Positions 1-46,818 of a DNA stretch of 64,000 nt are shown here, one piece after another (position 1 is the first letter of the stretch; the number at the start of each line of letters is the position of its first letter). The notes beneath the pieces were generated by a model. It had not been told where the DNA came from. It saw only the letters and a list, made by a program, of their open reading frames with translations, and made no database searches. Source of the DNA: Candidatus Rehaiarchaeum fermentans (GTDB lineage Archaea > Nanobdellota > Nanobdellia > Parvarchaeales > Parvarchaeaceae); assembly GCA_025920435.1 (NCBI GenBank), contig JAPDLT010000002.1:199-64198 (forward strand), given 5' to 3'. Made by a program: the position numbers and the translations under genes.

Positions 1-980
1 GTTAACATTTGTATAATAGAAGGCGGATTAAGAAGGGCTAAAAAACCAGAAACAGGAACATATTGAGGACCTAAAACTGTCTGCTCCAATTGAAATTTTC
101 CAAGTATTGGATTTCCTGATTTATAAAGAGTAAGCCCAAAAAATTGTAAACCGGCTAAAATAGAGACTATCATTATAAGAGGGATGACTGAATTATACAT
201 CAAAGAAATAGGCCATTTTATGGAAAAACCACGAAATCTTCCGAAAGATAATGGTAGCTCTACCCTAACTTGTTGAAGCCAAATTGCAAAAATAAATATT
301 CCAATTGTAGTTACTATTTCTATAATAGGAAATATTGCTTGCTGAATTAAACCCGAAATAGCAGAATAAATAATGGAAGGTATAGCACCGGGTGGAGAGA
401 AAATTGGATTAAACATGGTATTTATTAATTCTAATGATAGACTTCCTAAAATAAACAAACTTATTCCGGAACCAACTCCCCACTTGCTTACTAACTCATC
501 TAAAAAAAGTAATATAATTCCTCCAATAACAAGCTGCACCCACATTAATAACTGAAGAAGAATTGATGGATAAGCAGGAGTTATGGCACCAGAAAAAACG
601 TAAACAAAATTTTCAACAAGTATAAAAATAAAAGCTAGCAACTTTTGGGTGCCTTGGAATAGTACTCTTCCTTCATGTTGAGATAGATCGAAATGAATTA
701 TTTCAGATCCTTGTAAAAGTTCCATAAATATAGCTGCAGTAACTATAGGTCCAATACCTAAAGAAAGAACTGAACCGAAGTGAGCAGCTATAAGCGTTTG
801 TAAAACTTCGAAGCCAAAAGAATAAGTAGGACTAACACCAATCAGAGGTATATAGGAAAGTATAAAAAATATTGAAAGTGCAATAGCGGACCACTCTAAT
901 TTTTGTATAAAGCTGGTTTTAAATTCTGGAGAAGGTACAGAAGGTAAGTTAGACAGAAAATCTTTTAGTTTTTCATTCAT
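1..980 (-). CDS. secY: preprotein translocase subunit SecY (3' part runs off the window start)
   Basis: Minus-strand frame is open from ATG at 980-978 to the window edge, so it has no stop and is absent from the ORF track. My translation is MNEKLKDFLSNLPSVPSPEFKTSFIQKLEWSAIALSIFFILSYIPLIG...GIGPIVTAAIFMELLQG, multi-TM and SecY-like. It directly follows rpl15 as in the conserved L18-S5-L30-L15-SecY cluster, and its start overlaps the rpl15 stop by 8 nt. Confidence 0.85.
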   Translation of the reverse strand, partial: MNEKLKDFLSNLPSVPSPEFKTSFIQKLEWSAIALSIFFILSYIPLIGVSPTYSFGFEVLQTLIAAHFGSVLSLGIGPIVTAAIFMELLQGSEIIHFDLSQHEGRVLFQGTQKLLAFIFILVENFVYVFSGAITPAYPSILLQLLMWVQLVIGGIILLFLDELVSKWGVGSGISLFILGSLSLELINTMFNPIFSPPGAIPSIIYSAISGLIQQAIFPIIEIVTTIGIFIFAIWLQQVRVELPLSFGRFRGFSIKWPISLMYNSVIPLIMIVSILAGLQFFGLTLYKSGNPILGKFQLEQTVLGPQYVPVSGFLALLNPPSIIQML

Positions 981-1807: not shown

Positions 1808-2539
1808 TTAACTATGGAAAGCATTTATCTTTTTAAGTGCATCGAATACTGCATAGCCCAATGATACACGAGTGCTTGTATTGCCTCGAGAAAAAACCCA
1901 TATGTCTTTAATGCCAGCTAATCGCATGATCTTTTTAACGTCTGCAGATGCACAAAGACCTAATCCTTTCGGAGCACATATTAATTTAACTCTTACAGAA
2001 CTATTCTTACCTTCTACATTAAAAGGAATAGAATGAGGAGTATCACACGCGCACTCTCTGCTCCCACACCCTAATTTTATTTTTATAATTGAAGTTTTAG
2101 CTCTTTTTATAGCCTTTTCTCGAGCTATCACTGCATCTGGGCCTCTTCCATATCCTATTCCTATATGGCCTTTCCCGTCGCCTACTACTGCCATTACAGC
2201 AAAATGCTGCTTTTTACCTTCTGCAGTCACCTGCTGAGTATTTCTTCTTATAGTTCGTTTACCACCTCCCATTTTTCCTTTCATTTGACCTATGTTTAGA
2301 AAATCAATTTTAAGATCAGGTATTAAATAATCTACTATTTCTGCCTCTCTAATTTTAATACCTTTATCTAAAATTTCATCGATGCTTTTGAATTCTCCAG
2401 CTAGAACTCTCTTTCCCAACGAAGTTTTGAAATTAAAAGTCCTTTCACTGTTCTTTAATTCTCCTGAATTTGAATCAGTATTAAAATCTTGCTGACTCTC
2501 TGCCTTCTTTTCAATTCCTTCTGCACTATTTTGCTCCAT
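1808..2539 (-). CDS. rps5: 30S ribosomal protein uS5
   Basis: 243 aa. FAVMAVVGDGKGHIGIGYGRG and the C-terminal LAGIKDIW..SRGNTST are S5 domain signatures. Cluster context supports the call. Confidence 0.9.
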   Translation of the reverse strand: MEQNSAEGIEKKAESQQDFNTDSNSGELKNSERTFNFKTSLGKRVLAGEFKSIDEILDKGIKIREAEIVDYLIPDLKIDFLNIGQMKGKMGGGKRTIRRNTQQVTAEGKKQHFAVMAVVGDGKGHIGIGYGRGPDAVIAREKAIKRAKTSIIKIKLGCGSRECACDTPHSIPFNVEGKNSSVRVKLICAPKGLGLCASADVKKIMRLAGIKDIWVFSRGNTSTRVSLGYAVFDALKKINAFHS

Positions 2540-4623: not shown

Positions 4624-4947
4624 ATGGAAATAACAAAGGAAGAATTTGAAAAATTGAATTTAGTAGTAGGAAAAATAATAGATGTAAGTGAAGTACCGAA
4701 AAGCGATAAACTTTTAAAGATAAAAATAAGCATCGGAGAAAATACAAAAACTGTCGTATCAGGAATAAAAAAATGGTATAAAAAAGAAGAGCTATTAGGC
4801 AAAAAAGTAATTCTGCTAGAAAATATAAAACCAGCTAAATTTTTAGGAGAAATATCGGAAGGAATGATATTAGCTGCGAGCGATGGAGAAAATGTAAGCT
4901 TATTGACAGTAGACAAAGAAATAAAAGAAGGATCTAAGGTTAGCTAA
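4624..4947 (+). CDS. tRNA-binding domain protein (Trbp111/CsaA/MetRS-C-terminal-like OB fold)
   Basis: 107 aa. LVVGKIIDVSEVPKSDKLLKIKISIGE..TVVSGIKKWYKKEELLGKKVILLENIKPAKFLGEISEGMILAA matches the EMAP/Trbp111 tRNA-binding domain. The antisense ORF 4620-4916 is low-complexity. Confidence 0.75.
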   Translation: MEITKEEFEKLNLVVGKIIDVSEVPKSDKLLKIKISIGENTKTVVSGIKKWYKKEELLGKKVILLENIKPAKFLGEISEGMILAASDGENVSLLTVDKEIKEGSKVS

Positions 4948-6062
4948 AATCTTTCTATTTCATAAGTTTTTGGCAAGAACTTCAAAAATTGAGGGTATAA
5001 AGCTCTTTTATCTAAAACGTAAACGGAGGAGGAGCTTTTAGGACTTCTATTTGCTCTGCCTATCATCTGTAATAAAAGTGAAGCTGTTGCTCCATACAGC
5101 AAATCTTCTATAGAAATAGAAGAAATGAATGAAATGAGTTTAAGGCTTTCTATGATACTTTTATGAGGAAAAGGTAAACCTACTGCGACCAATACTTTAT
5201 TTTCTAAAGAAATACTTTCATTGTATTTTCCTCTGAATACTTGAACATCTATATTTTCTTTAAACAAGTCTGAAAACTTTTCAGCAAATTCTTTATTTTG
5301 GAAAAATGCAACTACTTTTCCTTTATTACTCAAACTTTTTAACAAACTTTTAATATAATCAATATTTTTTGATCTTTCGCCAAAACTCATGTCTAATTTA
5401 GAATCTACGAAAATTTTGATACGCCTTTTATCTTGAATGTCTATTATTTTATCAGGAGAAATAGCCCACTTAAAAAATTGTTTCGGAATAAAAGTACCGC
5501 TCATAAATACGCTTTTGAAAAATATACTTTTTAAGTATCTAATAAGAAAAACAATTTTAGGATTTTGAACTATTTCATTAAAAAGATTGTGCGCTTCATC
5601 TAAAATTAATACAGAATTGCGGAAATCGATATTAAATCGTTGATTTACTTTTGAAAATAAGTTTTCATCTAGCAAATGTTTAATTCCTATCATCTTTACT
5701 TTAGAGTATTTTATAATTTTCAAAGCAGGTCTGTAATAATTAAATTCAAAAGGATTAAAATAGTTTTTATGATAGCTAAAATCAATATTTATCATATATT
5801 CTTTTCCAAATATTCCTGCATAATTCAAAGAAACGTTAGATGCATTTGAAATGTTTTCTAATTCTTTAATAAAAGATAGATAATGAGTGTGTTTGAATGT
5901 AGCAATAACTATGTTTTTTTCTGGGAATTTAGAAAGAGCGTAAAAAAGGACCGGCGCTGTTTTGCCTGAACCGACATAAGAACTTAGCAAAATACTTCTT
6001 CCTTGATCTAACTCCTCAATTATAGTTTTTTGTTCTTCGCTAATTTTATAAGGAAATATCAT
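4944..6062 (-). CDS. minimal SF2 helicase, XPD/DinG-like but lacking the Fe-S cluster cysteines
   Basis: 372 aa. Motif I SSYVGSGKTAP, motif II LILDEAHNLF, SGT (FMSGTF) and motif VI QMIGRANRS are present. There are no Cys residues between motifs I and II, where XPD carries its 4Fe-4S domain. Confidence 0.6.
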   Translation of the reverse strand: MIFPYKISEEQKTIIEELDQGRSILLSSYVGSGKTAPVLFYALSKFPEKNIVIATFKHTHYLSFIKELENISNASNVSLNYAGIFGKEYMINIDFSYHKNYFNPFEFNYYRPALKIIKYSKVKMIGIKHLLDENLFSKVNQRFNIDFRNSVLILDEAHNLFNEIVQNPKIVFLIRYLKSIFFKSVFMSGTFIPKQFFKWAISPDKIIDIQDKRRIKIFVDSKLDMSFGERSKNIDYIKSLLKSLSNKGKVVAFFQNKEFAEKFSDLFKENIDVQVFRGKYNESISLENKVLVAVGLPFPHKSIIESLKLISFISSISIEDLLYGATASLLLQMIGRANRSPKSSSSVYVLDKRALYPQFLKFLPKTYEIERF

Positions 6063-7439: not shown

Positions 7440-7874
7440 TCAAGAAATAAATTCTCTTGGGTCTTTGTTTTCTACTTTTATTCCCATACTTAAACAAGTA
7501 CCTAATATTTCGTTTATAACCTTCTTTTCATCACTACTTATTGAATTTTTAATTCTTTTAGAAGCCAATTCTTTTATTTTTTCAAAAGGAATGGAAACAC
7601 TATTAGATCTATCACCAAAACCTTTCTCTATTCCTGCTATCTTCTTTAATTCCTCAGAAATAAATGGCATACCTACTTTTAATTCATATTGTTTTGTTTC
7701 CTTATCAATTTCTATTTCTATAGGAACTTTCATTCCACTAAATTCTTTCGTTAGTTCATTTATTTTTGGAATAACCTGCTGAGGACTAAGTCCTCCGCTA
7801 GAAAGCAGAGGCCCTAAAGGCGGCCCAAAAGACGCTTTCCCTCCTTCAACTATTGCTTTTAACGTTACTTTCAT
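7440..7874 (-). CDS. rpl11: 50S ribosomal protein uL11
   Basis: 144 aa. VEGGKASFGPPLGPLL is the L11 N-terminal signature. It follows spt5/nusG as in the conserved cluster. Confidence 0.9.
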   Translation of the reverse strand: MKVTLKAIVEGGKASFGPPLGPLLSSGGLSPQQVIPKINELTKEFSGMKVPIEIEIDKETKQYELKVGMPFISEELKKIAGIEKGFGDRSNSVSIPFEKIKELASKRIKNSISSDEKKVINEILGTCLSMGIKVENKDPREFIS

Positions 7875-8343
7875 ATTCCTCCTTTTTAACTAATTCTACA
7901 TCTGACATTTTAATATTTACTTGTATAGGTACCGATGATTGTATAAAAGACACAATTATTTCCTTTTTTTCGTTATCAACTCCTTTTACAGAAACTATCT
8001 CGCCTTTGAAAGGACCTGATATAACTCTTACTAAATCACCTATCTTTAATTCTAAAGATTTTTCTTCTTTCTTAAGTATTTTTTCAATATCTTGATCAGA
8101 AAGCTCTATATTGGAAAACCCTCTGAAGTATTTAATCCCTTTGAAAAATTCGTATAATTCTTCTGGATCATCTGTTTCTATTATTATATATCCTTTCAAT
8201 TTAGGAGAGTATATTACTGAAATAAGCGACTTTGGCACTTCTGAATTTCTAAGTATTTCTAGAAACTTTTTCTCCTTATTACTTATTACTTTTATTACTT
8301 TTATTTCGATTTGAGTCTCCTTGTTTTGCTCTTCTTCTGCCAT
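7846..8343 (-). CDS. spt5: transcription elongation factor Spt5 (NusG homolog)
   Basis: 165 aa. An NGN domain is followed by a KOW motif (KIGDLVRVISGPFKGEIVSVKGVD). It lies upstream of rpl11. Confidence 0.85.
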   Translation of the reverse strand: MAEEEQNKETQIEIKVIKVISNKEKKFLEILRNSEVPKSLISVIYSPKLKGYIIIETDDPEELYEFFKGIKYFRGFSNIELSDQDIEKILKKEEKSLELKIGDLVRVISGPFKGEIVSVKGVDNEKKEIIVSFIQSSVPIQVNIKMSDVELVKKEEYESNVKSNS

Positions 8344-8360
8344 TATGAATATTTATATAA

Positions 8361-8370
8361 TTATAAATAA
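8361..8370 (+). promoter_or_regulatory. TATA-box-like element upstream of the permuted tRNA
   Basis: TTATAAATAA lies about 23-32 nt upstream of the first paired leader nucleotide (8392/8393). That spacing is compatible with archaeal TATA-to-TSS distance. Confidence 0.35.
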
Positions 8371-8392
8371 CTTTAAAACATATCTTTTTATA

Positions 8393-8493
8393 AAGTCCTG
8401 GATGAAGCTTTTAACCGGGTGGTTGCGGGTTCAAATCCCGTCAGACCCACTTAGGGTCTGTAGCTCAATCCGGTAGAGCATCCGTCAGGACTT
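8393..8493 (+). tRNA. circularly permuted tRNA-Lys(UUU) gene: leader, 3' half (pos 31-73), 4-nt linker, 5' half (pos 1-30), trailer
   Basis: 8407-8449 reads G-CTTTTAA-CCGGG-TGGTT-GCGGG-TTCAAAT-CCCGT-CAGACCC-A. 8454-8484 reads GGGTCTG-TA-GCTC-AATCCGGTA-GAGC-A-TCCG. The acceptor strands are perfectly complementary, and the anticodon stem forms only after joining 8484 to 8407. Leader and trailer form a BHB: outer helix 8393-8400/8486-8493, central helix GATG/CATC, and 3-nt bulges AA^G and CG^T. A T-run at 8492-8495 follows. Confidence 0.8.
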
Positions 8494-8528
8494 TTAAAGA
8501 TTATATCGATATAGTTTATAGTATCTTA

Positions 8529-10055
8529 ATGGAAATACTAGATCAATACAAAATAGAAAAGGATGGATTAGTAGCGGATGTAAAAATAATAAGAGATCCT
8601 CAAAAATTTGTTTTACAATATAACATAACAGTACCAGAAATAAATCCTGCTATAAGTGCAATATTCAATGATATAAGAACCGATTTAATAAGAAACTATC
8701 CTGAAAAAGTAGATGAATTTTCAAAAGATCTGAATAACCAAAAGCTAAGACTAGAATTTTTAAATGAAATAAATAAAAGAGTTTCTTCGTATTTACCTGG
8801 GTACGATGAATCAAAAATAAAGGCTTATTCCGCAATGTTATTACATCAGATGTTTGGAATCGGTAAATTAGAAATAATTACAGCCGATGAAAATCTAGAA
8901 GAAATAGTAGCTAATAAATCGAAAAGCCCAGTATTTGTTTATCATAAAAAATTTGGTTGGTTAGAAAGTAATGTAAAAATAGATAGTGAAGAAGAAATTT
9001 ATAGCTATGCGCAATCTATAGGAAGACAAGTAGGCAGACAAATAACTACACTTTCTCCATTAATGGATGCTCAGTTGCCTTCAGGAGACAGAGTTAATGC
9101 GACACTTGCCCCTATTTCGATTCAGGGTAACACTTTAGACATTCGTAAGTTTAGAGCGGAGCCTTGGACCTTTATTGATTTCATAAAAAACCAAACTTTA
9201 ACAACTGAAATAGTAGCTACGTTGTGGGAGGGATTGCAGTATGAAATGTCAATAATTGTTACTGGAGGTACTGCTTCAGGTAAAACAAGCATGCTAAACG
9301 TATTAATGCCACTAATGCCTCCTAATCAAAGAATAATAACTATAGAAGATACTCACGAATTAGTATTGCCAAAATTCATGCATTGGGTTCCCTTAGTAAC
9401 TCGCCCTCCTAACAATGAAGGAAAGGGAGAAGTATCGATGCTAGATCTTCTAATAAACTCTTTGAGAATGAGACCTGATAGAATAGTAGTAGGAGAAGTT
9501 AGAAGAAAAGAAGAAGTAGAGACACTATTTGAAGGTTTAATGACTGGTCACGCAGTTTATGCTACAATACACGCAGATACTGCTCAACAAGTAATCAAAA
9601 GACTTCTATCCGCACCTATAGAACTACCAGAAATAGAACTATCTGCGATGGATTTAATTTTGACTGCTTTTAGACAAAGAAGAACAGGTATAAGAAGACT
9701 TAGAGAAATAGCAGAAATAGCAGAAACTTATTCTGCAGGAAAAATGGAAATTAAGGCAAATAATATATTTGAATGGAATTCTAGAACAGATAAAATAGAA
9801 AGAACTACAAATCCTTCACTAAAATTCTATTCTAAGATTTATAGTTATACAGGATTATCGCAAAAAGAAATAGATGATGAAATAAATGAAAAGAAGAAAG
9901 TTATAGAATGGATGTTAAGAAAAAACGTAAATGGAGTAGATAATTTAGGTTATATAATAGCTACTTATTACATCGATAAAAATAGCGTATTAAATATTGT
10001 TGAAAAGGATGGTGATCCTCAGCTATTGCTTTCACAGTATGGAAAACAAAATTAA
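8529..10055 (+). CDS. type IV pilus/archaellum-family assembly ATPase (FlaI/PilB/VirB11 superfamily)
   Basis: 508 aa. Walker A IVTGGTASGKTSMLN, RIITIEDTHEL (Asp box), Walker B RPDRIVVGEVR and His box GHAVYATIHA are present. Confidence 0.85.
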   Translation: MEILDQYKIEKDGLVADVKIIRDPQKFVLQYNITVPEINPAISAIFNDIRTDLIRNYPEKVDEFSKDLNNQKLRLEFLNEINKRVSSYLPGYDESKIKAYSAMLLHQMFGIGKLEIITADENLEEIVANKSKSPVFVYHKKFGWLESNVKIDSEEEIYSYAQSIGRQVGRQITTLSPLMDAQLPSGDRVNATLAPISIQGNTLDIRKFRAEPWTFIDFIKNQTLTTEIVATLWEGLQYEMSIIVTGGTASGKTSMLNVLMPLMPPNQRIITIEDTHELVLPKFMHWVPLVTRPPNNEGKGEVSMLDLLINSLRMRPDRIVVGEVRRKEEVETLFEGLMTGHAVYATIHADTAQQVIKRLLSAPIELPEIELSAMDLILTAFRQRRTGIRRLREIAEIAETYSAGKMEIKANNIFEWNSRTDKIERTTNPSLKFYSKIYSYTGLSQKEIDDEINEKKKVIEWMLRKNVNGVDNLGYIIATYYIDKNSVLNIVEKDGDPQLLLSQYGKQN

Positions 10056-11961: not shown

Positions 11962-12852
11962 TCAATATTTCATCGTAGAGAGCACTAAATACAAAATACT
12001 TACACTAATGAAAATTCCGCCAACTAAAGTTATTAAAAATACATAATATGAAATTTGGGAATTACCAAGAAATTCTATCATATCAATCCTCCCTAAAATA
12101 TAAGGATAAAATGAAGAAGATACAATAAATATACTTAAAAAAACTAGCACTAGGGAAATTAAGGTAACAAATTTACTTTTCACAAACATAAATATTAAAA
12201 ATAAAACGACGATTGCAGCATAAATATAAATCAAATATAAATTGATAGTGAAGAAATTATAGTTAAGTCTTAAGAAAGCTAGCAATGATGAAAAAATCAA
12301 AATATATAAAATGAAGAGAATAAGATTCTTTTTTTCAGAAAATATGATGTTTCCTATAAATAAAGATGAAACAAACCCTACTATTAAAAGAACATATAGC
12401 AAAGGATTAGTAAACCATTTAAACCAATTAATTGATTTTGTAAGTAAGTTTATTCCGTAACCATTAGAGGCATTGGCCAATAATGAAAAAACTAGAAACC
12501 AGAGAATAAGAGAAGTAATTATAAATAAATATTTCGATTCTTCGGAAGATTTGTTTTCGAAGTTAGAAAAAAAGTAATTACGAAGTAAAAACAACAATCC
12601 TGCAATTAATATGGGAATAATAAATACTGAACTTATTAATGGTATTGCTAACGGAAATGTTGCTTCTGTATTAACAACATAAAACACCCCAAAAGTACCT
12701 AAAACTTCCCAAATAGGTAAAAAGTACTTCTTTATTTTTTCTTTATATTTTTTGTAATTTAAAATTGAATAAATTACTACGCTGTTATCGTATAAAACTA
12801 ATAATAAAAATGCAGAAAATATCAAATAATTAATAAGAAAAGGGCCATTCAT
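11962..12852 (-). CDS. cydB: cytochrome bd oxidase subunit II (short form)
   Basis: 296 aa, about 8 TM helices, and a PIWE motif (FLPIWEVLGTFGVF) resembling the CydB PVWDGNEVW region. 4-nt overlap downstream of cydA. Confidence 0.65.
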   Translation of the reverse strand: MNGPFLINYLIFSAFLLLVLYDNSVVIYSILNYKKYKEKIKKYFLPIWEVLGTFGVFYVVNTEATFPLAIPLISSVFIIPILIAGLLFLLRNYFFSNFENKSSEESKYLFIITSLILWFLVFSLLANASNGYGINLLTKSINWFKWFTNPLLYVLLIVGFVSSLFIGNIIFSEKKNLILFILYILIFSSLLAFLRLNYNFFTINLYLIYIYAAIVVLFLIFMFVKSKFVTLISLVLVFLSIFIVSSSFYPYILGRIDMIEFLGNSQISYYVFLITLVGGIFISVSILYLVLSTMKY

Positions 12853-14282
12853 AGTCGCTTCATTTCGTTTTCTATGCTTTCTTTAGAACTAACCTTTTTT
12901 ATCAAAAAGTAAGTTAAAGGAATAATAGAAGAATAAAATAAAACAATCATAATTGAAAACACTTCAGTAAATGAAGAATATTCTGCTCCTTGATTAACTG
13001 TCATAACATCATATATTATCCAAGGCTGTCTACCAACTTCTGCAGTAACCCATCCAAGCTCCAGAGTAATTATTGAAAGAATAGATACAAAAATAATTAA
13101 ATAAAGCAAAAATTTGCTATTTAAGCTAAAGAATTTATTAATAAATCTTATACGTAAATTTCTTGCTTCAAAAAGTAAAAATAAAAACGCAATTAAAAAA
13201 ACGATAAAAATAACAAAACCACTTAATGCCATAAAATCAAAAGTGTCATGCACAAATAAAGGAGGCCAACTTGCATCGTTATAAAGATAAGCAGGCACAT
13301 TTTGGTAAAGAGAAGGATATAAGGAAGGAGGAAAAGTAGTAGCATTAAATTCTTTTAATCCTGGAGCAGTCCCTCCTAACAGAAAACTTTGAAGGCGTGG
13401 AATTACAAGTGCATCTTTTACAACTAAACTTCCATTCTGGGTTATTTCCGGAATTCCAAATATAATTTCTGAAGCATTCGAAGAGGGAGCATAATTAGCT
13501 TCTAATGCAGCGTATTTTTCTGGCTGAGTATTCGCAAGTGATTTTATTGAATCCATTCCTGAAATACCTGTTAACAATATCCCTATAAAACCTAAAATAA
13601 GGAGCAATCTAAGTGATTTATTATAAAATATTTTAGATTCTTCAGAAGTGCTTCTAAAGAGTGAAAAAATAACATAAATAAGAACAATAGATACTGCTAC
13701 AAGAAAGGAGCTAGGCAAAACGTGAGATATTTCTACAAAAGTGCTAGGAGTATTAAATACAGATAAAGGGTTTACATCCGTTATTATACCCTTAGTTAAA
13801 TAAGCTTGTATGTTGAACCCAGTAGGTGTATTCATGAAAGCGTTTATCATTGTTATAAGTGCACCTGAAAGAGACGCACCTATTGCAATTATTAAACCTG
13901 AAATAATATGAGAAATTTTACCTAAGTTCTTTAGTGAATAGAAATACACTCCAATAAATATAGATTCAGCAAAAAATGCAAATACTTCTACATAAAATGG
14001 CAATATTGCGACTTGCCCAACCAAAGTCATAAAATTCGGCCATAAGACAAACAATTCCAATGCAACGATTATACCTGATGCAGTTCCTATGGCAAATAAT
14101 ACTATAAAGGGCCTAATTAACTTTTTAGCAAGTAAGAGAAAATACTTATCTTTTCTTCCCAGTATTTCTGAAATAACAATTATAATTGGAAGCCCTATTC
14201 CTAAAGAAGCAAATATTATATGAACACCTAAAGAAAATCCCTGAATAAATCTACTAAAAATCAAATAACTAGCTAAATCCAT
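12849..14282 (-). CDS. cydA: cytochrome bd oxidase subunit I
   Basis: 477 aa. Conserved N-terminal His (FSLGVHIIFASLG) and the hallmark GWVTAEVGRQPWIIY motif are present. The protein is multi-TM. Confidence 0.9.
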   Translation of the reverse strand: MDLASYLIFSRFIQGFSLGVHIIFASLGIGLPIIIVISEILGRKDKYFLLLAKKLIRPFIVLFAIGTASGIIVALELFVLWPNFMTLVGQVAILPFYVEVFAFFAESIFIGVYFYSLKNLGKISHIISGLIIAIGASLSGALITMINAFMNTPTGFNIQAYLTKGIITDVNPLSVFNTPSTFVEISHVLPSSFLVAVSIVLIYVIFSLFRSTSEESKIFYNKSLRLLLILGFIGILLTGISGMDSIKSLANTQPEKYAALEANYAPSSNASEIIFGIPEITQNGSLVVKDALVIPRLQSFLLGGTAPGLKEFNATTFPPSLYPSLYQNVPAYLYNDASWPPLFVHDTFDFMALSGFVIFIVFLIAFLFLLFEARNLRIRFINKFFSLNSKFLLYLIIFVSILSIITLELGWVTAEVGRQPWIIYDVMTVNQGAEYSSFTEVFSIMIVLFYSSIIPLTYFLIKKVSSKESIENEMKRL

Positions 14283-14597: not shown

Positions 14598-14722
14598 TGC
14601 AGGGGGTGGGATTCGAACCCACGAAGGCCTAATGCCACAGGATTTCCAATCATTGATTAATCTCTTTACTTAAGATATAGAGATCTTAAGTCCTGCGCGT
14701 TTAACCGCTTCGCTACCCCTGC
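14598..14722 (-). tRNA. tRNA-Leu(UAA), class II, with a 41-nt intron at 37/38
   Basis: Reverse complement is GCAGGGG-TA-GCG..CGC-G-CAGGA-CTTAAG[41-nt insert]A-TCCTG-TGGCATTAGGCCTTC-GTGGG-TTCGAAT-CCCAC-CCCCTGC-A. The long variable arm plus discriminator A73 supports Leu rather than Ser. Confidence 0.75.
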
Positions 14723-29395: not shown

Positions 29396-30178
29396 ATGCA
29401 AATTATTGAGCAAATACCTCGAGGCTTCAAAAGAATAGGAACTGCAATTATTATAGAATCTAACAGGGACTACGGAAAATACGACAAGGAAATAGGAGCG
29501 GAAATTCTTCGAAAAACAAAAGCGGAAAGTGTTTTCCTAAAAATAGAAAAAATAAAAGGAAGAGAACGTGTTCCTAAACTAAAATTAATAGCAGGGAAAA
29601 ATAAATCAGTCTTTCTAACTAAAGAAAATGGCTGCTTATTCTATGTAAATTTAAGAAGATGCTTCTTTGATCCTTCTATGCAAAATGAAAGAAAAAGAAT
29701 ATATGAGCTAGTAAAAAGCGGTGAAAAAATAATAGATATGTTTAGCGGAGTAGGCCCATTTTCTATATTATTAGCTAAAAAAGCAAAAATAGTATATGCA
29801 ATTGAAATAAACCACTATGCTTATTCATTGCTAAAGAGAAATATTGAATTAAACAAAGTAAAAAACGTAATACCTTTGCTTGGAGACGCAAAAGAGATGA
29901 TTAATAAAATAGAAGGGGACTATGATAGAATAATAATGAATTTACCTTCGGAAGCCGAAAAATTTTTATCATTTGCTATAAATAAAGTAAATAAAGGAGT
30001 CATTCACTTATATAAATTTGTTAGATATTACGATTCAGATTTAAATTCAGAAGCAAGAAAAATATCAAACCTTTTAAAAGATGAATATAAAGTAATAAAA
30101 AACATAGATTTTACAAAGTGTGGAGATGTTTCTCCTTATACATCAAGAGTTTGTTTTGATATTTATCTAGAAAAGTAA
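29396..30178 (+). CDS. trm5: tRNA (m1G37) methyltransferase Trm5/Taw22 family (Met-10+ like)
   Basis: 260 aa. IIDMFSGVGPFSILLAKKAKIVYAIEINHYAY..NKV..GDA..IIMNLP are Trm5 class I MTase motifs. Confidence 0.8.
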   Translation: MQIIEQIPRGFKRIGTAIIIESNRDYGKYDKEIGAEILRKTKAESVFLKIEKIKGRERVPKLKLIAGKNKSVFLTKENGCLFYVNLRRCFFDPSMQNERKRIYELVKSGEKIIDMFSGVGPFSILLAKKAKIVYAIEINHYAYSLLKRNIELNKVKNVIPLLGDAKEMINKIEGDYDRIIMNLPSEAEKFLSFAINKVNKGVIHLYKFVRYYDSDLNSEARKISNLLKDEYKVIKNIDFTKCGDVSPYTSRVCFDIYLEK

Positions 30179-45762: not shown

Positions 45763-46818
45763 TCATTTAATTTGATTATAAAACAATTCGGAGATCACAT
45801 TTAATGCGTACTCTCCTCTTTCTAAAATAAATGATAGTTCATATCGATTTCCTTCTTTGGAAAGAGAAATTTCTTTTGGAAACGAAATTGCCTTTCTAAA
45901 TCTACATTTCATATCTATCTCCGGCATAGAAGGAATTTCTAATTGTTTATAACAAATACCTTCTTCGCTTAGAATTTGTTGTATTTTATCAAAGTAAACT
46001 ACATCTTTGTAATTAAACAAGTCATAACCTGGCAAAATAATATATCTATAAGAATTTAATTCTATTCTTGAAAGTAACTTATTGAACAAATATGCTTGAT
46101 AGGATTGAAATATAAGCATCCTTAATCTTTTATCTAATTTTTTGATTTCTTTTAGATAGTCCTGCTTACTACTTATTTTTATATTTTTTAAAAAACTCAG
46201 CGCAATTCCTAAGTATCCCTGAATAAGTGCATATGAGGCTTTTAAATTAATTAATTTTCTCCCAAATCTTTGATAATTAAAATAATTTCTAACTCCATTG
46301 CTTCTCAGATAATTTATTCCTTTCAATAAATCTGATTCATTATGTTGAAGAGAAAATCTGACAACAAACCTATTTCCTACATTTTTTCCTAGTTTACATC
46401 CCTCATTAGATGTATGAATATCACTAATTTTAATATCGCTATTTAGCATACTTAAGTTCAAAAGCTTTTTTAATAATTGCTCATTAAATGGCAAAGATAG
46501 GAGTTGCGAGGTAGTTGCATACTTATCTTTTAAGCCGTAATATCCAAAAAGTTTAGATGATATATTTAATTTATCTGCTATTATCTTTATAGCTTCAAGT
46601 GTGCTTAAGTTTCTTTTTATTAGCTTAAATCTTATGAAGCTCTTACCAGAATTTTGATAATTATTTTCCTTTTCTAGATAAACAACCTTGCCAGCCTCGT
46701 CTATTTCTTCTACAAAAAAAGAATCAGCATTTAGTTCTAAAGGATAATTAACACAGTATTGATTATCAAATTTCTCGATTCCTATAGCACGAAAATTGAT
46801 ATTATTTAATTTTACCAT
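45763..46818 (-). CDS. truD: tRNA pseudouridine synthase TruD/Pus7 family
   Basis: 351 aa. FGYYGLKDKYATTSQ contains the catalytic GxKD motif, and NYFNYQRFG is also typical. Confidence 0.8.
   Translation of the reverse strand: MVKLNNINFRAIGIEKFDNQYCVNYPLELNADSFFVEEIDEAGKVVYLEKENNYQNSGKSFIRFKLIKRNLSTLEAIKIIADKLNISSKLFGYYGLKDKYATTSQLLSLPFNEQLLKKLLNLSMLNSDIKISDIHTSNEGCKLGKNVGNRFVVRFSLQHNESDLLKGINYLRSNGVRNYFNYQRFGRKLINLKASYALIQGYLGIALSFLKNIKISSKQDYLKEIKKLDKRLRMLIFQSYQAYLFNKLLSRIELNSYRYIILPGYDLFNYKDVVYFDKIQQILSEEGICYKQLEIPSMPEIDMKCRFRKAISFPKEISLSKEGNRYELSFILERGEYALNVISELFYNQIK

Follow-up and report, generated by a model that had tools for sequence, protein, structure and literature searches.

Circular permutation is very rare among tRNA genes: a 2014 review (PMC3978253) lists 34 permuted ones, of which two are archaeal, both in one crenarchaeon. 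Like the gene that we describe below, the crenarchaeal genes are archaeal, place the 3′ half upstream of the 5′ half on one strand and behind one promoter (a candidate one in our case), have a bulge-helix-bulge (BHB) motif at the junction, and are missed or mis-scored by standard tRNA finders. They differ from it in that their junction lies at 59/60 in the T loop rather than at 30/31 in the anticodon stem, in that they encode CCA and contain a canonical intron (ours does neither), in the length of their spacers (1 and 7 nt, versus 2-4 nt in the lineage studied here), and in that they belong to the Thermoproteota and specify another isoacceptor, whereas our host is a parvarchaeote of the DPANN group. 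In addition, for our case there are sister genomes with colinear orthologs at the corresponding locus, and these date the event. The permuted genes of Cyanidioschyzon merolae and green algae (Soma 2007; PMC3978253) follow the same gene logic and do not encode CCA, and their proposed maturation is the one that we propose here: the BHB is cleaved, the ends are ligated into a circle, the acceptor loop is opened and CCA is added. C. merolae likewise has a permuted tRNA-Lys(UUU). The algal genes are, however, eukaryotic nuclear genes with intervening sequences of 5-74 nt and with junctions at 15/16, 20/21, 37/38, 50/51 or 59/60, never 30/31, and circular intermediates have been shown experimentally in algae, whereas the circle of the present case is predicted from the sequence.

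Three other systems are similar in part. The tRNA-Lys(CUU) that is split in Nanoarchaeum equitans and in Staphylothermus marinus and S. hellenicus is another lysine tRNA, and its junction is likewise at 30/31, where a canonical hBHBh′ motif is followed by a 13-bp helix (8-15 bp in the lineage studied here) that is kept by a compensatory change, and one of its hosts is also a DPANN archaeon; but it is made from two genes with two promoters that are joined in trans and has the anticodon CUU, whereas ours has one transcript, reversed halves and the anticodon UUU. Archaeal introns at non-canonical positions use the same BHB-dependent endonuclease and ligase chemistry, and there too the BHB conformer competes with the mature stems; their exons are colinear and an internal piece is excised, whereas here the ends of the transcript would be excised and the ligation product would be circular. 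Finally, the YrlA Y RNAs (RF02553; Chen 2014; 10.1101/312249) share with our gene the order of elements, the paired 5′ and 3′ ends and the tertiary-interaction nucleotides, but they are bacterial, lack a BHB, are associated with Ro60 or RtcB, and are not known to mature into a tRNA.

The locus described here lies in a 64,000-nucleotide stretch of DNA (the window) from Candidatus Rehaiarchaeum fermentans (Parvarchaeota, DPANN), a tiny archaeon from a hot spring; a preliminary description made from the letters of the window had correctly guessed a DPANN-type host. We consider it highly probable (roughly 0.88), on the strength of comparative sequence analysis, that this locus is a functional, circularly permuted gene for the tRNA-Lys(UUU) of this organism. 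The permuted layout as such is already known. In the searchable literature we found no earlier report of one from DPANN, as the preliminary description had supposed, so that to this extent the gene is the first there; it makes a second archaeal lineage with permuted tRNA genes, and 30/31, inside the anticodon stem, is a junction that is not in the 2014 list.

Layout of the gene and identity of the rejoined tRNA

On the + strand, positions 8392-8494 of the window read in the following order: leader, tRNA positions 31-73, CTTA, tRNA positions 1-30 and trailer (Table 1). The upstream half is made up of G31, the anticodon loop CTTTTAA, CCGGG, the variable loop TGGTT, the T arm, the 3′ strand of the acceptor stem (CAGACCC) and the discriminator A73; CCA is absent from the gene. 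All of the segments and coordinates that had been assigned in the preliminary description agree with the sequence to the base. The two acceptor strands are perfectly complementary (7/7 pairs), TCCG plus G pairs with CCGGG only when 8484 is joined to 8407, both as claimed there, and the outer helix that it gave as 8-9 bp is 9 bp long (8392-8400 with 8486-8494).

Table 1. Features of the permuted tRNA-Lys(UUU) locus and its flanks (positions in the window)
Feature	Position	Strand	Remarks
Spt5/NusG gene	7846..8343	-	Upstream syntenic anchor
A/T-rich promoter-like block TTATAAATAACTTTA, TATA-like box	8361..8375	+	Suggestive only
Leader strand of outer BHB helix h, AAAGTCCTG	8392..8400	+	9/9 pairs with 8486-8494; predicted to be lost in maturation
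Leader segment of the preliminary description, AAGTCCTG	8393-8400	+	
GATG, leader strand of central 4-bp BHB helix H	8401..8404	+	4/4 pairs with CATC 8479-8482
3-nt bulge AA^G	8405..8407	+	Predicted endonuclease cut 8406/8407; G31 opens the 3′ half; invariant
tRNA-Lys(UUU) positions 31-73	8407..8449	+	Permuted covariance model, end-to-end 8407-8484
Spacer CTTA, loop closing the acceptor stem	8450..8453	+	Differs freely between versions
tRNA-Lys(UUU) positions 1-30	8454..8484	+	GGGTCTG (acceptor 5′ strand), U8 A9, D arm, A26, TCCG (27-30)
CATC, tRNA positions 25-28, second strand of helix H	8479..8482	+	H 4/4 at the 30/31 junction only
3-nt bulge CG^T	8483..8485	+	Predicted cut 8484/8485; G30 ends the 5′ half; T8485 invariant
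Trailer strand of outer helix h, CAGGACTTT	8486..8494	+	Pairs with 8392-8400
Trailer segment of the preliminary description, CAGGACTT	8486-8493	+	Preceded by T 8485
TTTTAAAG, short T-run (possible terminator)	8492..8499	+	Overlaps conserved CTTAAA(G/A)
FlaI-like T2SS/T4P ATPase gene	8529..10055	+	Downstream syntenic anchor

Does the rejoined sequence have the properties of a tRNA? All of the universal tRNA nucleotides are present (U8, A14, G18G19, A21, U33, A37, G53-T54-T55-C56, A58 and C61), as are the tertiary interactions A15-U48, A26-U44, G10-C25-G45, C13-G22-G46 and A9-A23-U12. A general-tRNA covariance model was built from 64 unrelated tRNAs that are at most 70% identical to the target, and its order was permuted in silico at 30/31; its full length is matched by 8407-8484 with 81.7 bits (E 1.4e-23); 21/21 pairs are standard in this alignment, and the next-best match elsewhere scores 28.6 bits. 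ARAGORN identifies the rejoined halves as a 74-nt tRNA-Lys(ttt). A degenerate pattern for the permuted order has one match (0.00 expected from 100 shuffles), far more than chance would give, and an architecture scan of the 64 kb yields a single credible permuted case. In the native order the gene is reported by neither ARAGORN nor the Rfam tRNA model, so the expectation that linear finders would miss it holds. Scoring the rearranged sequence with tRNA models had been proposed as a check; the sequence passes, but the check does not discriminate, since many different junctions satisfy ARAGORN, and true Y RNAs from bacteria get through ARAGORN as well as the permuted covariance model; a tRNA score is necessary rather than diagnostic. 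The ARAGORN rejoin test (128 junction combinations) was rejected as a discriminator on these grounds, with many junctions and bacterial mimics accepted. It is the BHB and the orthology described below, not the tRNA score, that decide the case.

The bulge-helix-bulge motif at position 30/31

The leader and trailer form a strict 3-4-3 BHB whose two bulges both fall exactly at 30/31. When the junctions from 26/27 to 31/32 were compared, a 5/5 anticodon stem was obtained at 30/31 only and, independently, a canonical BHB (H 4/4, outer helix 8-15 bp) was found at 30/31 only in the four gene versions tested; two copies found later have junction columns identical to those four. The cut sites were assigned by the geometric rule that the endonuclease cuts after the second base of each bulge, which we validated on an intron in the window itself as follows: the tRNA-Leu(UAA) gene at 14598-14722 has a 41-nt intron, and the rule yields the correct product. 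A strict BHB scan (H 4/4) missed ordinary introns, and relaxing H to 3/4 recovered the tRNA-Leu splice sites.

The inner helix h′ is formed by C32-U35 with A21-G24. The D and anticodon stems are in competition with both h′ and the central helix, which makes the BHB an alternative conformer of the precursor, one that needs the anticodon stem and part of the D stem to be unwound. The computed energies of the BHB conformer and the cloverleaf are about equal (-30.2 versus -31.7 kcal/mol). The ViennaRNA minimum free energy fold of the precursor (-46.5 kcal/mol) is rod-like and is neither cloverleaf nor BHB; it was treated as uninformative, as is usual for tRNAs. The closest described relatives, ARMAN-4 and ARMAN-5, have an alpha4-type endonuclease, which according to one paper is limited to strict motifs at the canonical position; the Rehaiarchaeum motif is strict, yet it lies away from 37/38.

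Conservation, colinear orthologs and alternative explanations

Eight assemblies or samples yielded the gene, in six distinct versions (the window with L121 and L122; L228; L215; L216; L221; and L230 with L231), which form two clades and in which the gene is always located between Spt5 and the FlaI-like ATPase gene. ARMAN-5 (L222-L224), L225, L226 and L229 were uninformative, with synteny lost or the contig ending inside a flanking gene. The flanks of the two clades are unalignable, and their Spt5 proteins are 49% identical. When the six sequences are aligned, pairing in the BHB conformer is 100%, compared with 34-49% in slid-register controls, and five of the eight innermost pairs of the outer helix, as well as acceptor pair 4:69, have changed on both sides with no disruption, a covariation that is drawn from essentially two clades and so represents few independent events. 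The outer helix is 8-15 bp long among the relatives, and the spacer is CTTA, ATTA, AAA or AA (2-4 nt) depending on the version. GATG is invariant in 6/6 versions though it lies outside the mature tRNA; more generally, the BHB core has seven bases that are not part of the tRNA (GATGAA and T8485), and none of them varies, versus 13/20 positions of the outer helix and spacer (Fisher p=0.006). The tRNA body varies at 3/74 positions in four copies, position 43 is added in the six-copy set, and two of these four changes are a compensatory pair.

A search of metagenome and viral contigs with a strict pattern gave no permuted relative, a weak negative since the matching JGI contig L230, which was found through its proteins, was also absent from the results; the matches obtained were tandem colinear tRNAs (many in phage clusters), the Y-RNA-like L150 and a tandem intron-containing tRNA locus (L189). 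The matches listed from a loose-pattern scan of genome contigs included bacterial tandem tRNA clusters and Y-RNA comparators; among those matches there was no permuted relative.

In two sister genomes (~60% ATPase identity) the site between Spt5 and the ATPase gene is occupied, on the same strand, by a tRNA-Lys(UUU) of the ordinary colinear form. In L227 (2743-2816) ARAGORN calls it tRNA-Lys(ttt), and its Rfam score is 69.5 bits; in L217 it is at 5781-5867, scores 56.9 bits with Rfam and has a 13-nt intron at 37/38 (parsed by hand). The rearranged window tRNA is identical to these colinear orthologs at 62-64 of 74 positions. Since a colinear tRNA-Lys(UUU) occupies the same site in the sister genomes, the permuted gene is its ortholog. 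On our reading the permuted gene replaced a colinear tRNA-Lys(UUU) at this locus in the common ancestor of the two Rehaiarchaeum-type clades, most likely after an intron-bearing gene was duplicated in tandem and the outer halves were then lost.

The alternative that deserves the closest attention is that the element is an archaeal counterpart of the bacterial YrlA Y RNAs, that is, a stable non-coding RNA that mimics a tRNA and is never matured into one. The best Rfam match of the native order is indeed YrlA (46 bits, E 3.5e-9), the T arm, closed acceptor and D arm follow one another in bacterial Y RNAs as they do here, some of these RNAs have a CUUUUAA loop and a perfect anticodon stem once rejoined, they match the permuted tRNA model at 58-66 bits, and the YrlA literature itself remarks on their resemblance to permuted tRNAs. 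The 46 bits are, however, short of the RF02553 gathering threshold of 69 (for the bacterial L011 the score is 76.1), the relatives L215, L216 and L221 go unreported at that threshold, and the Y-specific stem positions are deleted in the YrlA alignment of the window element. None of the bacterial comparators has a BHB at the junction that rebuilds the stem (H no better than 3/4, outer helix no longer than 1 bp), whereas all archaeal copies do, and it is this BHB junction that restores the whole CUUUUAA loop and the 5-bp stem. Of the bacterial comparators checked, three adjoin genes for Ro60 or RtcB (L108, TROVE and vWA_Ro60; L101, TROVE; L011, RtcB), whereas TROVE or RtcB is found in 0/72 ORFs of the window; the leader/trailer helix, five of whose eight pairs covary, has no conserved sequence for a Ro60 site; and, by its position, the window element is orthologous to a real tRNA-Lys(UUU). 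We therefore regard a Y RNA as very improbable.

Could the gene instead be a decaying or redundant rearranged copy left by a tandem duplication, with a working colinear tRNA-Lys(UUU) elsewhere in the genome? Permuted layouts plausibly arise from tandem duplicates, and the part of the genome examined is 64 kb, which leaves room for a second tRNA-Lys(UUU). Against this, the tRNA body has changed at only 4/74 positions between two clades whose flanks cannot be aligned, while the splice core is invariant; the sister genomes keep their tRNA-Lys(UUU) at exactly the Spt5|ATPase site; no colinear tRNA-Lys was found in the lineage DNA examined; and we would expect small DPANN genomes to carry single-copy tRNA genes. 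We judge a redundant copy to be as improbable as a Y RNA. [quoted passage not shown] The same holds for an assembly or binning artefact: the sources are all metagenome-assembled and one of the carrying contigs is labelled as another order (Conexivisphaerales), but eight independent assemblies or samples from different projects have the same arrangement at the same syntenic site with ordered sequence divergence, which effectively excludes it. The permuted tRNA-Lys(UUU) with canonical BHB cutting at 30/31 that was originally proposed has survived every test that was run, and the comparative evidence, to which the preliminary description had no access, strengthens it considerably.

Predicted expression and maturation, and significance

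Since the 2-4 nt spacer is too short to hold a promoter, both halves should be on one transcript. In each of the four permuted copies that were compared, a block related to the promoter-like block (ATAAATAACTTTA / GATAAACTTTA) stands upstream, at a distance of 25 nt from GATG and of 16-19 nt from the innermost 8 bp of the leader helix, and blocks of a similar kind, AAAC(C)TTT, are present upstream of ordinary tRNAs in the window; these blocks are suggestive only, because the region is very AT-rich (30% GC makes promoter calls weak). Transcription would presumably start near 8391-8393. The conserved CTTAAA(G/A) downstream is present in all copies, in the window with two extra T (CTTTTAAAG), and probably serves the ATPase gene (ATG at 8529) as its TATA box. 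Across the copies there is no conserved oligo-T terminator after the trailer, and the T-run varies.

From archaeal tRNA splicing and the algal precedent we infer the following course of transcription and maturation and the mature ends. The splicing endonuclease would cut after 8406 and after 8484, and an RtcB-type ligase would join G30 to G31 to give a 78-nt circle. RNase P and a 3′ endonuclease (tRNase Z) would then open the acceptor loop, with CTTA discarded, and addition of CCA would give a normal 74-nt tRNA plus CCA. Alternatively, the ends may be processed before the two paired halves are spliced. A Pfam survey of the 72 window ORFs gave no EndA, RtcB, RNase P proteins, CCA-adding enzyme or Ro60. 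The intron-containing tRNA-Leu(UAA) means that this genome needs BHB splicing anyway, so that an endonuclease and a ligase are implied and are presumably encoded elsewhere.

The Rehaiarchaeum genome paper used tRNAscan-SE 2.0.9. Because linear tRNA finders miss the gene, such genomes may seem to be without tRNA-Lys(UUU), and quality metrics based on tRNA counts would be biased. In screens for permuted tRNAs, on the other hand, the tRNA score of the rearranged sequence cannot separate out mimics of the Y-RNA type. The origin of the gene can be bracketed, and the sister genomes with an ordinary gene make this a clean system for studying how permuted genes arise. The coincidence of its junction with that of the Nanoarchaeum and Staphylothermus split tRNA-Lys bears on the debate over the evolution of disrupted tRNA genes. 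We tentatively raise the idea, which we think unlikely, that position 30/31 of archaeal tRNA-Lys is a recurrent or inherited site of disruption, with the Rehaiarchaeum permuted gene and the Nanoarchaeum and Staphylothermus split genes stemming from the same type of event (a 30/31 intron or a mobile element that targets the site). If so, permuted genes would form a natural step between tRNA genes with introns and split ones, and the colinear orthologs in sister Parvarchaeota would let the transition be rebuilt stepwise.

AAA had been described as very common in the coding sequence of the window, and it is in fact the most frequent codon in the genes of the window (1,211 of 17,387 codons) and makes up 74% of the Lys codons. 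If the gene is single-copy, translation in this archaeon would depend on the cutting and rejoining of its tRNA-Lys(UUU) transcript.

Anatomy and detection of the permuted gene

The segment-by-segment anatomy proposed for 8393-8493 agrees exactly with the sequence (table below), and the outer helix of the bulge-helix-bulge (BHB) is present as claimed, except that its length had been understated by one pair (8392-8400 with 8486-8494). When 8454-8484 is joined to 8407-8449, the product is 74 nt long and is identified by ARAGORN as tRNA-Lys(ttt), with all universal tRNA nucleotides and the tertiary pairs A15-U48, A26-U44, G10-C25-G45, C13-G22-G46 and A9-A23-U12; CCA is not encoded. The gene is the sole element in the 185 bp that separate the divergently oriented genes for Spt5 (-) and a FlaI-like ATPase (+). 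AAA, described as very common, is the top codon of the window genes (1,211/17,387; 74% of lysine codons).

Linear finders do miss the gene, as had been expected: ARAGORN (six other tRNAs) and Rfam (seven) report none here. A degenerate pattern of the permuted order matches once in the window (0.00 expected from 100 shuffles), and a generic scan that looked for an acceptor hairpin after a T arm found no other credible case there; the permuted arrangement at 8393-8493 is not due to chance. The rearranged gene was put to an equivalent covariance test as follows: 64 ordinary tRNAs (13 isotypes, unrelated loci, each <=70% identical to the target) were permuted at 30/31 in silico, four random nucleotides serving as spacer, and the model built from them with a permuted cloverleaf structure was run with search filters off. 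It matches 8407-8484 over its full length (positions 1-78 of 78) at 81.7 bits (E 1.4e-23) with 21/21 pairs standard, and the runner-up matches in the window (<=28.6 bits) are 3' halves of ordinary tRNAs; for scale, the normal tRNAs of the window score 52-75 bits with the Rfam tRNA model.

Segments of the permuted gene and locations of its relatives, colinear orthologs and bacterial mimics
Feature	Source	Position	Strand	Remarks
Leader AAGTCCTG, then GATG, then AA	window		+	first segments of permuted gene
tRNA positions 31-73	window		+	G, CTTTTAA, CCGGG, TGGTT, GCGGG-TTCAAAT-CCCGT, CAGACCC, A
Spacer CTTA	window		+	between tRNA 31-73 and tRNA 1-30
tRNA positions 1-30	window		+	GGGTCTG, TA, GCTC-AATCCGGTA-GAGC, A, TCCG
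T, then trailer CAGGACTT	window		+	after tRNA 1-30
Permuted gene, same site	GCA_025920375.1			identical element
Permuted gene, same site	GCA_025920395.1 (L228)
Permuted gene, same site	GCA_038881795.1 (L215)			ATPase 84% identical
Permuted gene, same site	GCA_964405205.1 (L216)			ATPase 71% identical
Permuted gene, same site	GCA_023270075.1 (L221)
Permuted gene, same site	JGI metagenome and Logan run (L230/L231)			Spt5 49% identical
Colinear tRNA-Lys(UUU)	L227	2743-2816		ARAGORN tRNA-Lys(ttt); Rfam 69.5 bits; no intron
Colinear tRNA-Lys(UUU)	L217	5781-5867		Rfam 56.9 bits; 13-nt intron at 37/38, central helix CTTT/AAAG
Y-RNA-type mimic, bacterial	L011	79-208
Y-RNA-type mimics, bacterial	L101	6428-6501, 6120-6195
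Y-RNA-type mimic, bacterial	L108	5494-5569
Y-RNA-type mimics, bacterial	L074	1321-2189
Y-RNA-type mimic, bacterial	L015	388-466
Y-RNA-type mimic, bacterial	L150	3041-3120

The predicted splice junction, its conservation and its origin

Junctions 26/27 to 31/32 were each scored twice, for the rebuilt anticodon stem and, independently, for canonical BHB geometry (an outer helix, 4 bp between two 3-nt bulges, and cleavage following the second base of the bulge). In four archaeal versions 30/31 is the only tested junction with a 5/5 anticodon stem and the only one whose central helix pairs 4/4 and whose outer helix has 8-15 bp, so the canonical BHB claimed there stands as a strict 3-4-3 motif. The precursor conformers are nearly iso-energetic (BHB -30.2 versus cloverleaf -31.7 kcal/mol), and the inner helix (C32-U35 with A21-G24) and central helix of the BHB use strands that belong to the D stem and the anticodon stem. 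Such borrowing from mature stems is usual at stem-located archaeal splice sites. An internal control is provided by tRNA-Leu(UAA) at 14598-14722 (-), which ARAGORN missed and Rfam matches at 51.9 bits: the same cut rule, applied to its 41-nt intron at 37/38, gives the correct 84-nt product, and its slightly relaxed BHB (central helix 3/4, outer helix 7 bp, inner helix 2 bp) means that splicing in this organism must already cope with a less canonical junction than the 30/31 motif. Elsewhere, in metagenome contig L189 (Ga0164310_10176472), tandem tRNA genes at ~259-620 (-) apparently have ~75-nt introns in the anticodon stem (~28/29); Rfam reports a tRNA of 151 nt at 299-449, and a canonical BHB was not found at the ~28/29 junction.

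NCBI places Candidatus Rehaiarchaeum fermentans in Nanobdellati (DPANN), Candidatus Parvarchaeota, in agreement with the preliminary description. Relatives were found from the DNA around homologs of Spt5 and the FlaI-like ATPase, and their permuted genes comprise six distinct sequences in two clades, all at the same site, which rules out an assembly artefact. The outer helix is wholly different between the clades (AAAGTCCTG/CAGGACTTT versus AAGTTTTGATTCCG/CGGAATCAAAACTT) with perfect pairing kept. In the six-sequence alignment, 5/8 of its innermost pairs are changed on both sides and none is broken, acceptor pair 4:69 changes from U-A to C-G, and the BHB conformer is 100% paired, versus 34-49% in a slid register. 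The spacer is free to drift (CTTA, ATTA, AAA, AA). The BHB core includes 7 bases outside the tRNA (GATG, AA and the T that follows position 30), and none of them varies, versus 13/20 in helix and spacer (Fisher p=0.006). A helix conserved only in its pairing beside frozen leader bases is what a splice-site motif would be predicted to leave, as judged from few independent substitutions in two clades. ARMAN-4/5, the closest described relatives, have a 177-aa alpha4-type endonuclease, a class said to require a strict 3-4-3 motif; such strictness, if shared, would explain why GATG-AA is frozen. No splicing endonuclease of Rehaiarchaeum was found within the 64-kb window.

Several observations concern the relatives themselves. 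The L215 contig (JAVZPC010000036.1), labelled 'Conexivisphaerales archaeon', is clearly Rehaiarchaeum-like (ATPase 84%, Spt5 72%, same gene order) and is either mis-binned or a host and symbiont co-binned. The JGI copy (L230; 3300041912, Ga0453806_45111) at 2360-2459 (-) fits the strict pattern yet was unreturned by the metagenome-contig scan, so that collection is incomplete, and a search of it that finds nothing says little about absence. The tRNA-Cys(GCA) of the second permuted clade measures 85-86 nt (L216, 315-400 (-); L230, 4468-4552 (+)), more than a standard tRNA, and may include a short intron or additional arm.

The Spt5|ATPase synteny is kept in two genomes with ~60% ATPase identity, and each has a colinear tRNA-Lys(UUU) there on the same strand; the rearranged Rehaiarchaeum sequence is identical to these at 62/74 and 64/74 positions. 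By shared site, strand and identity, the permuted gene and a normal tRNA-Lys(UUU) are positional orthologs. The synteny is lost in ARMAN-5, and the Rehaiarchaeum-lineage DNA examined has no colinear tRNA-Lys. These comparisons place the permutation after the split from the colinear lineages and before the divergence of the two permuted clades.

Permuted gene or tRNA mimic

Does a rejoined sequence that looks like a tRNA identify a permuted gene? Such likeness, proposed as a test, is necessary but fails to separate a permuted gene from a tRNA mimic, since ARAGORN and the permuted model (58-66 bits) also accept the bacterial comparators; ARAGORN even accepts the archaeal element rejoined at many wrong junctions. 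The separation therefore rests on splice motif and gene context. The mimic concerned is YrlA (RF02553), a bacterial Y-RNA-like RNA described as without an anticodon loop, with a closed acceptor stem, that 'resembles circularly permuted tRNAs' (Chen 2014; preprint 10.1101/312249). Like the element, it runs from T arm through closed acceptor to D arm, and it is the top Rfam match in native order, but at 46 bits, under the gathering score of 69; bacterial L011 is YrlA by Rfam at 76.1 bits. Among seven comparators, bacterial or metagenomic, the junctions that rebuild the stem (28/29 or 29/30) reach at most 3/4 in the central helix and 1 bp in the outer helix, and comparators adjoin Ro60 genes (TROVE and vWA_Ro60 in L108, TROVE in L101) or RtcB (L011), whereas 0/72 window ORFs are TROVE or RtcB. 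We consider a YrlA-type mimic very improbable, and put at about 0.88 the probability that 8393-8493 is a permuted tRNA-Lys(UUU) gene with a BHB at 30/31 and the maturation predicted from its sequence. A split tRNA is rejected: the halves are only 2-4 nt apart, so there is no room for an internal promoter.

Among the matches listed in the first database scan were several bacterial loci with Y-RNA-type layout outside any tRNA gene. The six mimic loci in the table all have a CUUUUAA 'anticodon loop', in contrast to the YrlA description, and a short local closing stem; rejoining at 28/29 or 29/30 would restore a tRNA-Lys-like anticodon stem with all 5 bp paired. Up to five of these modules follow one another in L074. 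In Shimazuella kribbensis (L053), 4909-4983 (+), outside any ARAGORN tRNA, the 3' part of a tRNA-Lys-like sequence, with CTTTTAA, T arm and acceptor strand, precedes a 3-nt spacer, an acceptor 5' strand complementary to the first, and a D arm; the permuted model scores the locus at 58.6 bits.

Predicted maturation and relation to known systems

A conserved TATA-like block (8361-8375), found 25 nt upstream of GATG in each of four compared copies, would drive transcription. The splicing endonuclease would cut after 8406 and after 8484, G30-G31 ligation would give a 78-nt circle, and RNase P and a 3' endonuclease would open the acceptor loop, with CTTA lost and CCA added; acceptor-loop opening, spacer loss and CCA addition have been demonstrated for algal permuted tRNAs (Soma 2007; review PMC3978253). 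A CTTAAA(G/A) block directly 3' of the trailer, with the ATPase start codon ~30 nt downstream (window 8491-8499, CTTTTAAAG; also L215, L216 and L221), probably serves as TATA box of the ATPase gene, whose mRNA would then be almost leaderless. After the trailer, no conserved oligo-T terminator is visible in the window or the compared copies, and the tRNA transcript may read through into the ATPase gene. LysRS, EndA, RtcB and CCA-adding enzyme are absent from the 64-kb window; it encodes ProRS, LeuRS and ArgRS, a Trm5/TYW2-type methyltransferase (29396-30178 (+)), a TruD pseudouridine synthase (45763-46818 (-)) and a small tRNA-binding-domain protein (4624-4947 (+)). Cytochrome bd oxidase subunit-like genes, judged from translations alone, lie at 11962-14282 (-) in this organism named 'fermentans' for its reliance on fermentation.

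Of the 34 permuted tRNA genes listed in a 2014 review, whose junctions are 15/16, 20/21, 37/38, 50/51 and 59/60, only tRNA-iMet and tRNA-Tyr of Thermofilum pendens are archaeal, both 59/60 with CCA encoded and an extra intron. Unlike these, the Rehaiarchaeum gene is permuted at 30/31 without encoded CCA, and 30/31, absent from that list, is a junction class new to permuted genes. The accessible part of the Rehaiarchaeum description paper reports tRNA annotation with tRNAscan-SE 2.0.9 and makes no mention of permuted genes. No report of a permuted tRNA from a DPANN archaeon was found in the full-text literature, including that since 2015, which mostly leaves out subscription journals; within this coverage, which does not guarantee priority, the gene is the first found for DPANN archaea. 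The tRNA-Lys(CUU) that is split in Nanoarchaeum equitans and Staphylothermus has exactly the same 30/31 junction and likewise a canonical hBHBh' (outer, central and inner helices with two bulges) followed by a long helix kept by compensatory change. Permuted tRNA genes are rare, and here the origin of one can be traced to a colinear ortholog; that its junction is shared with split tRNA-Lys genes is a notable coincidence.
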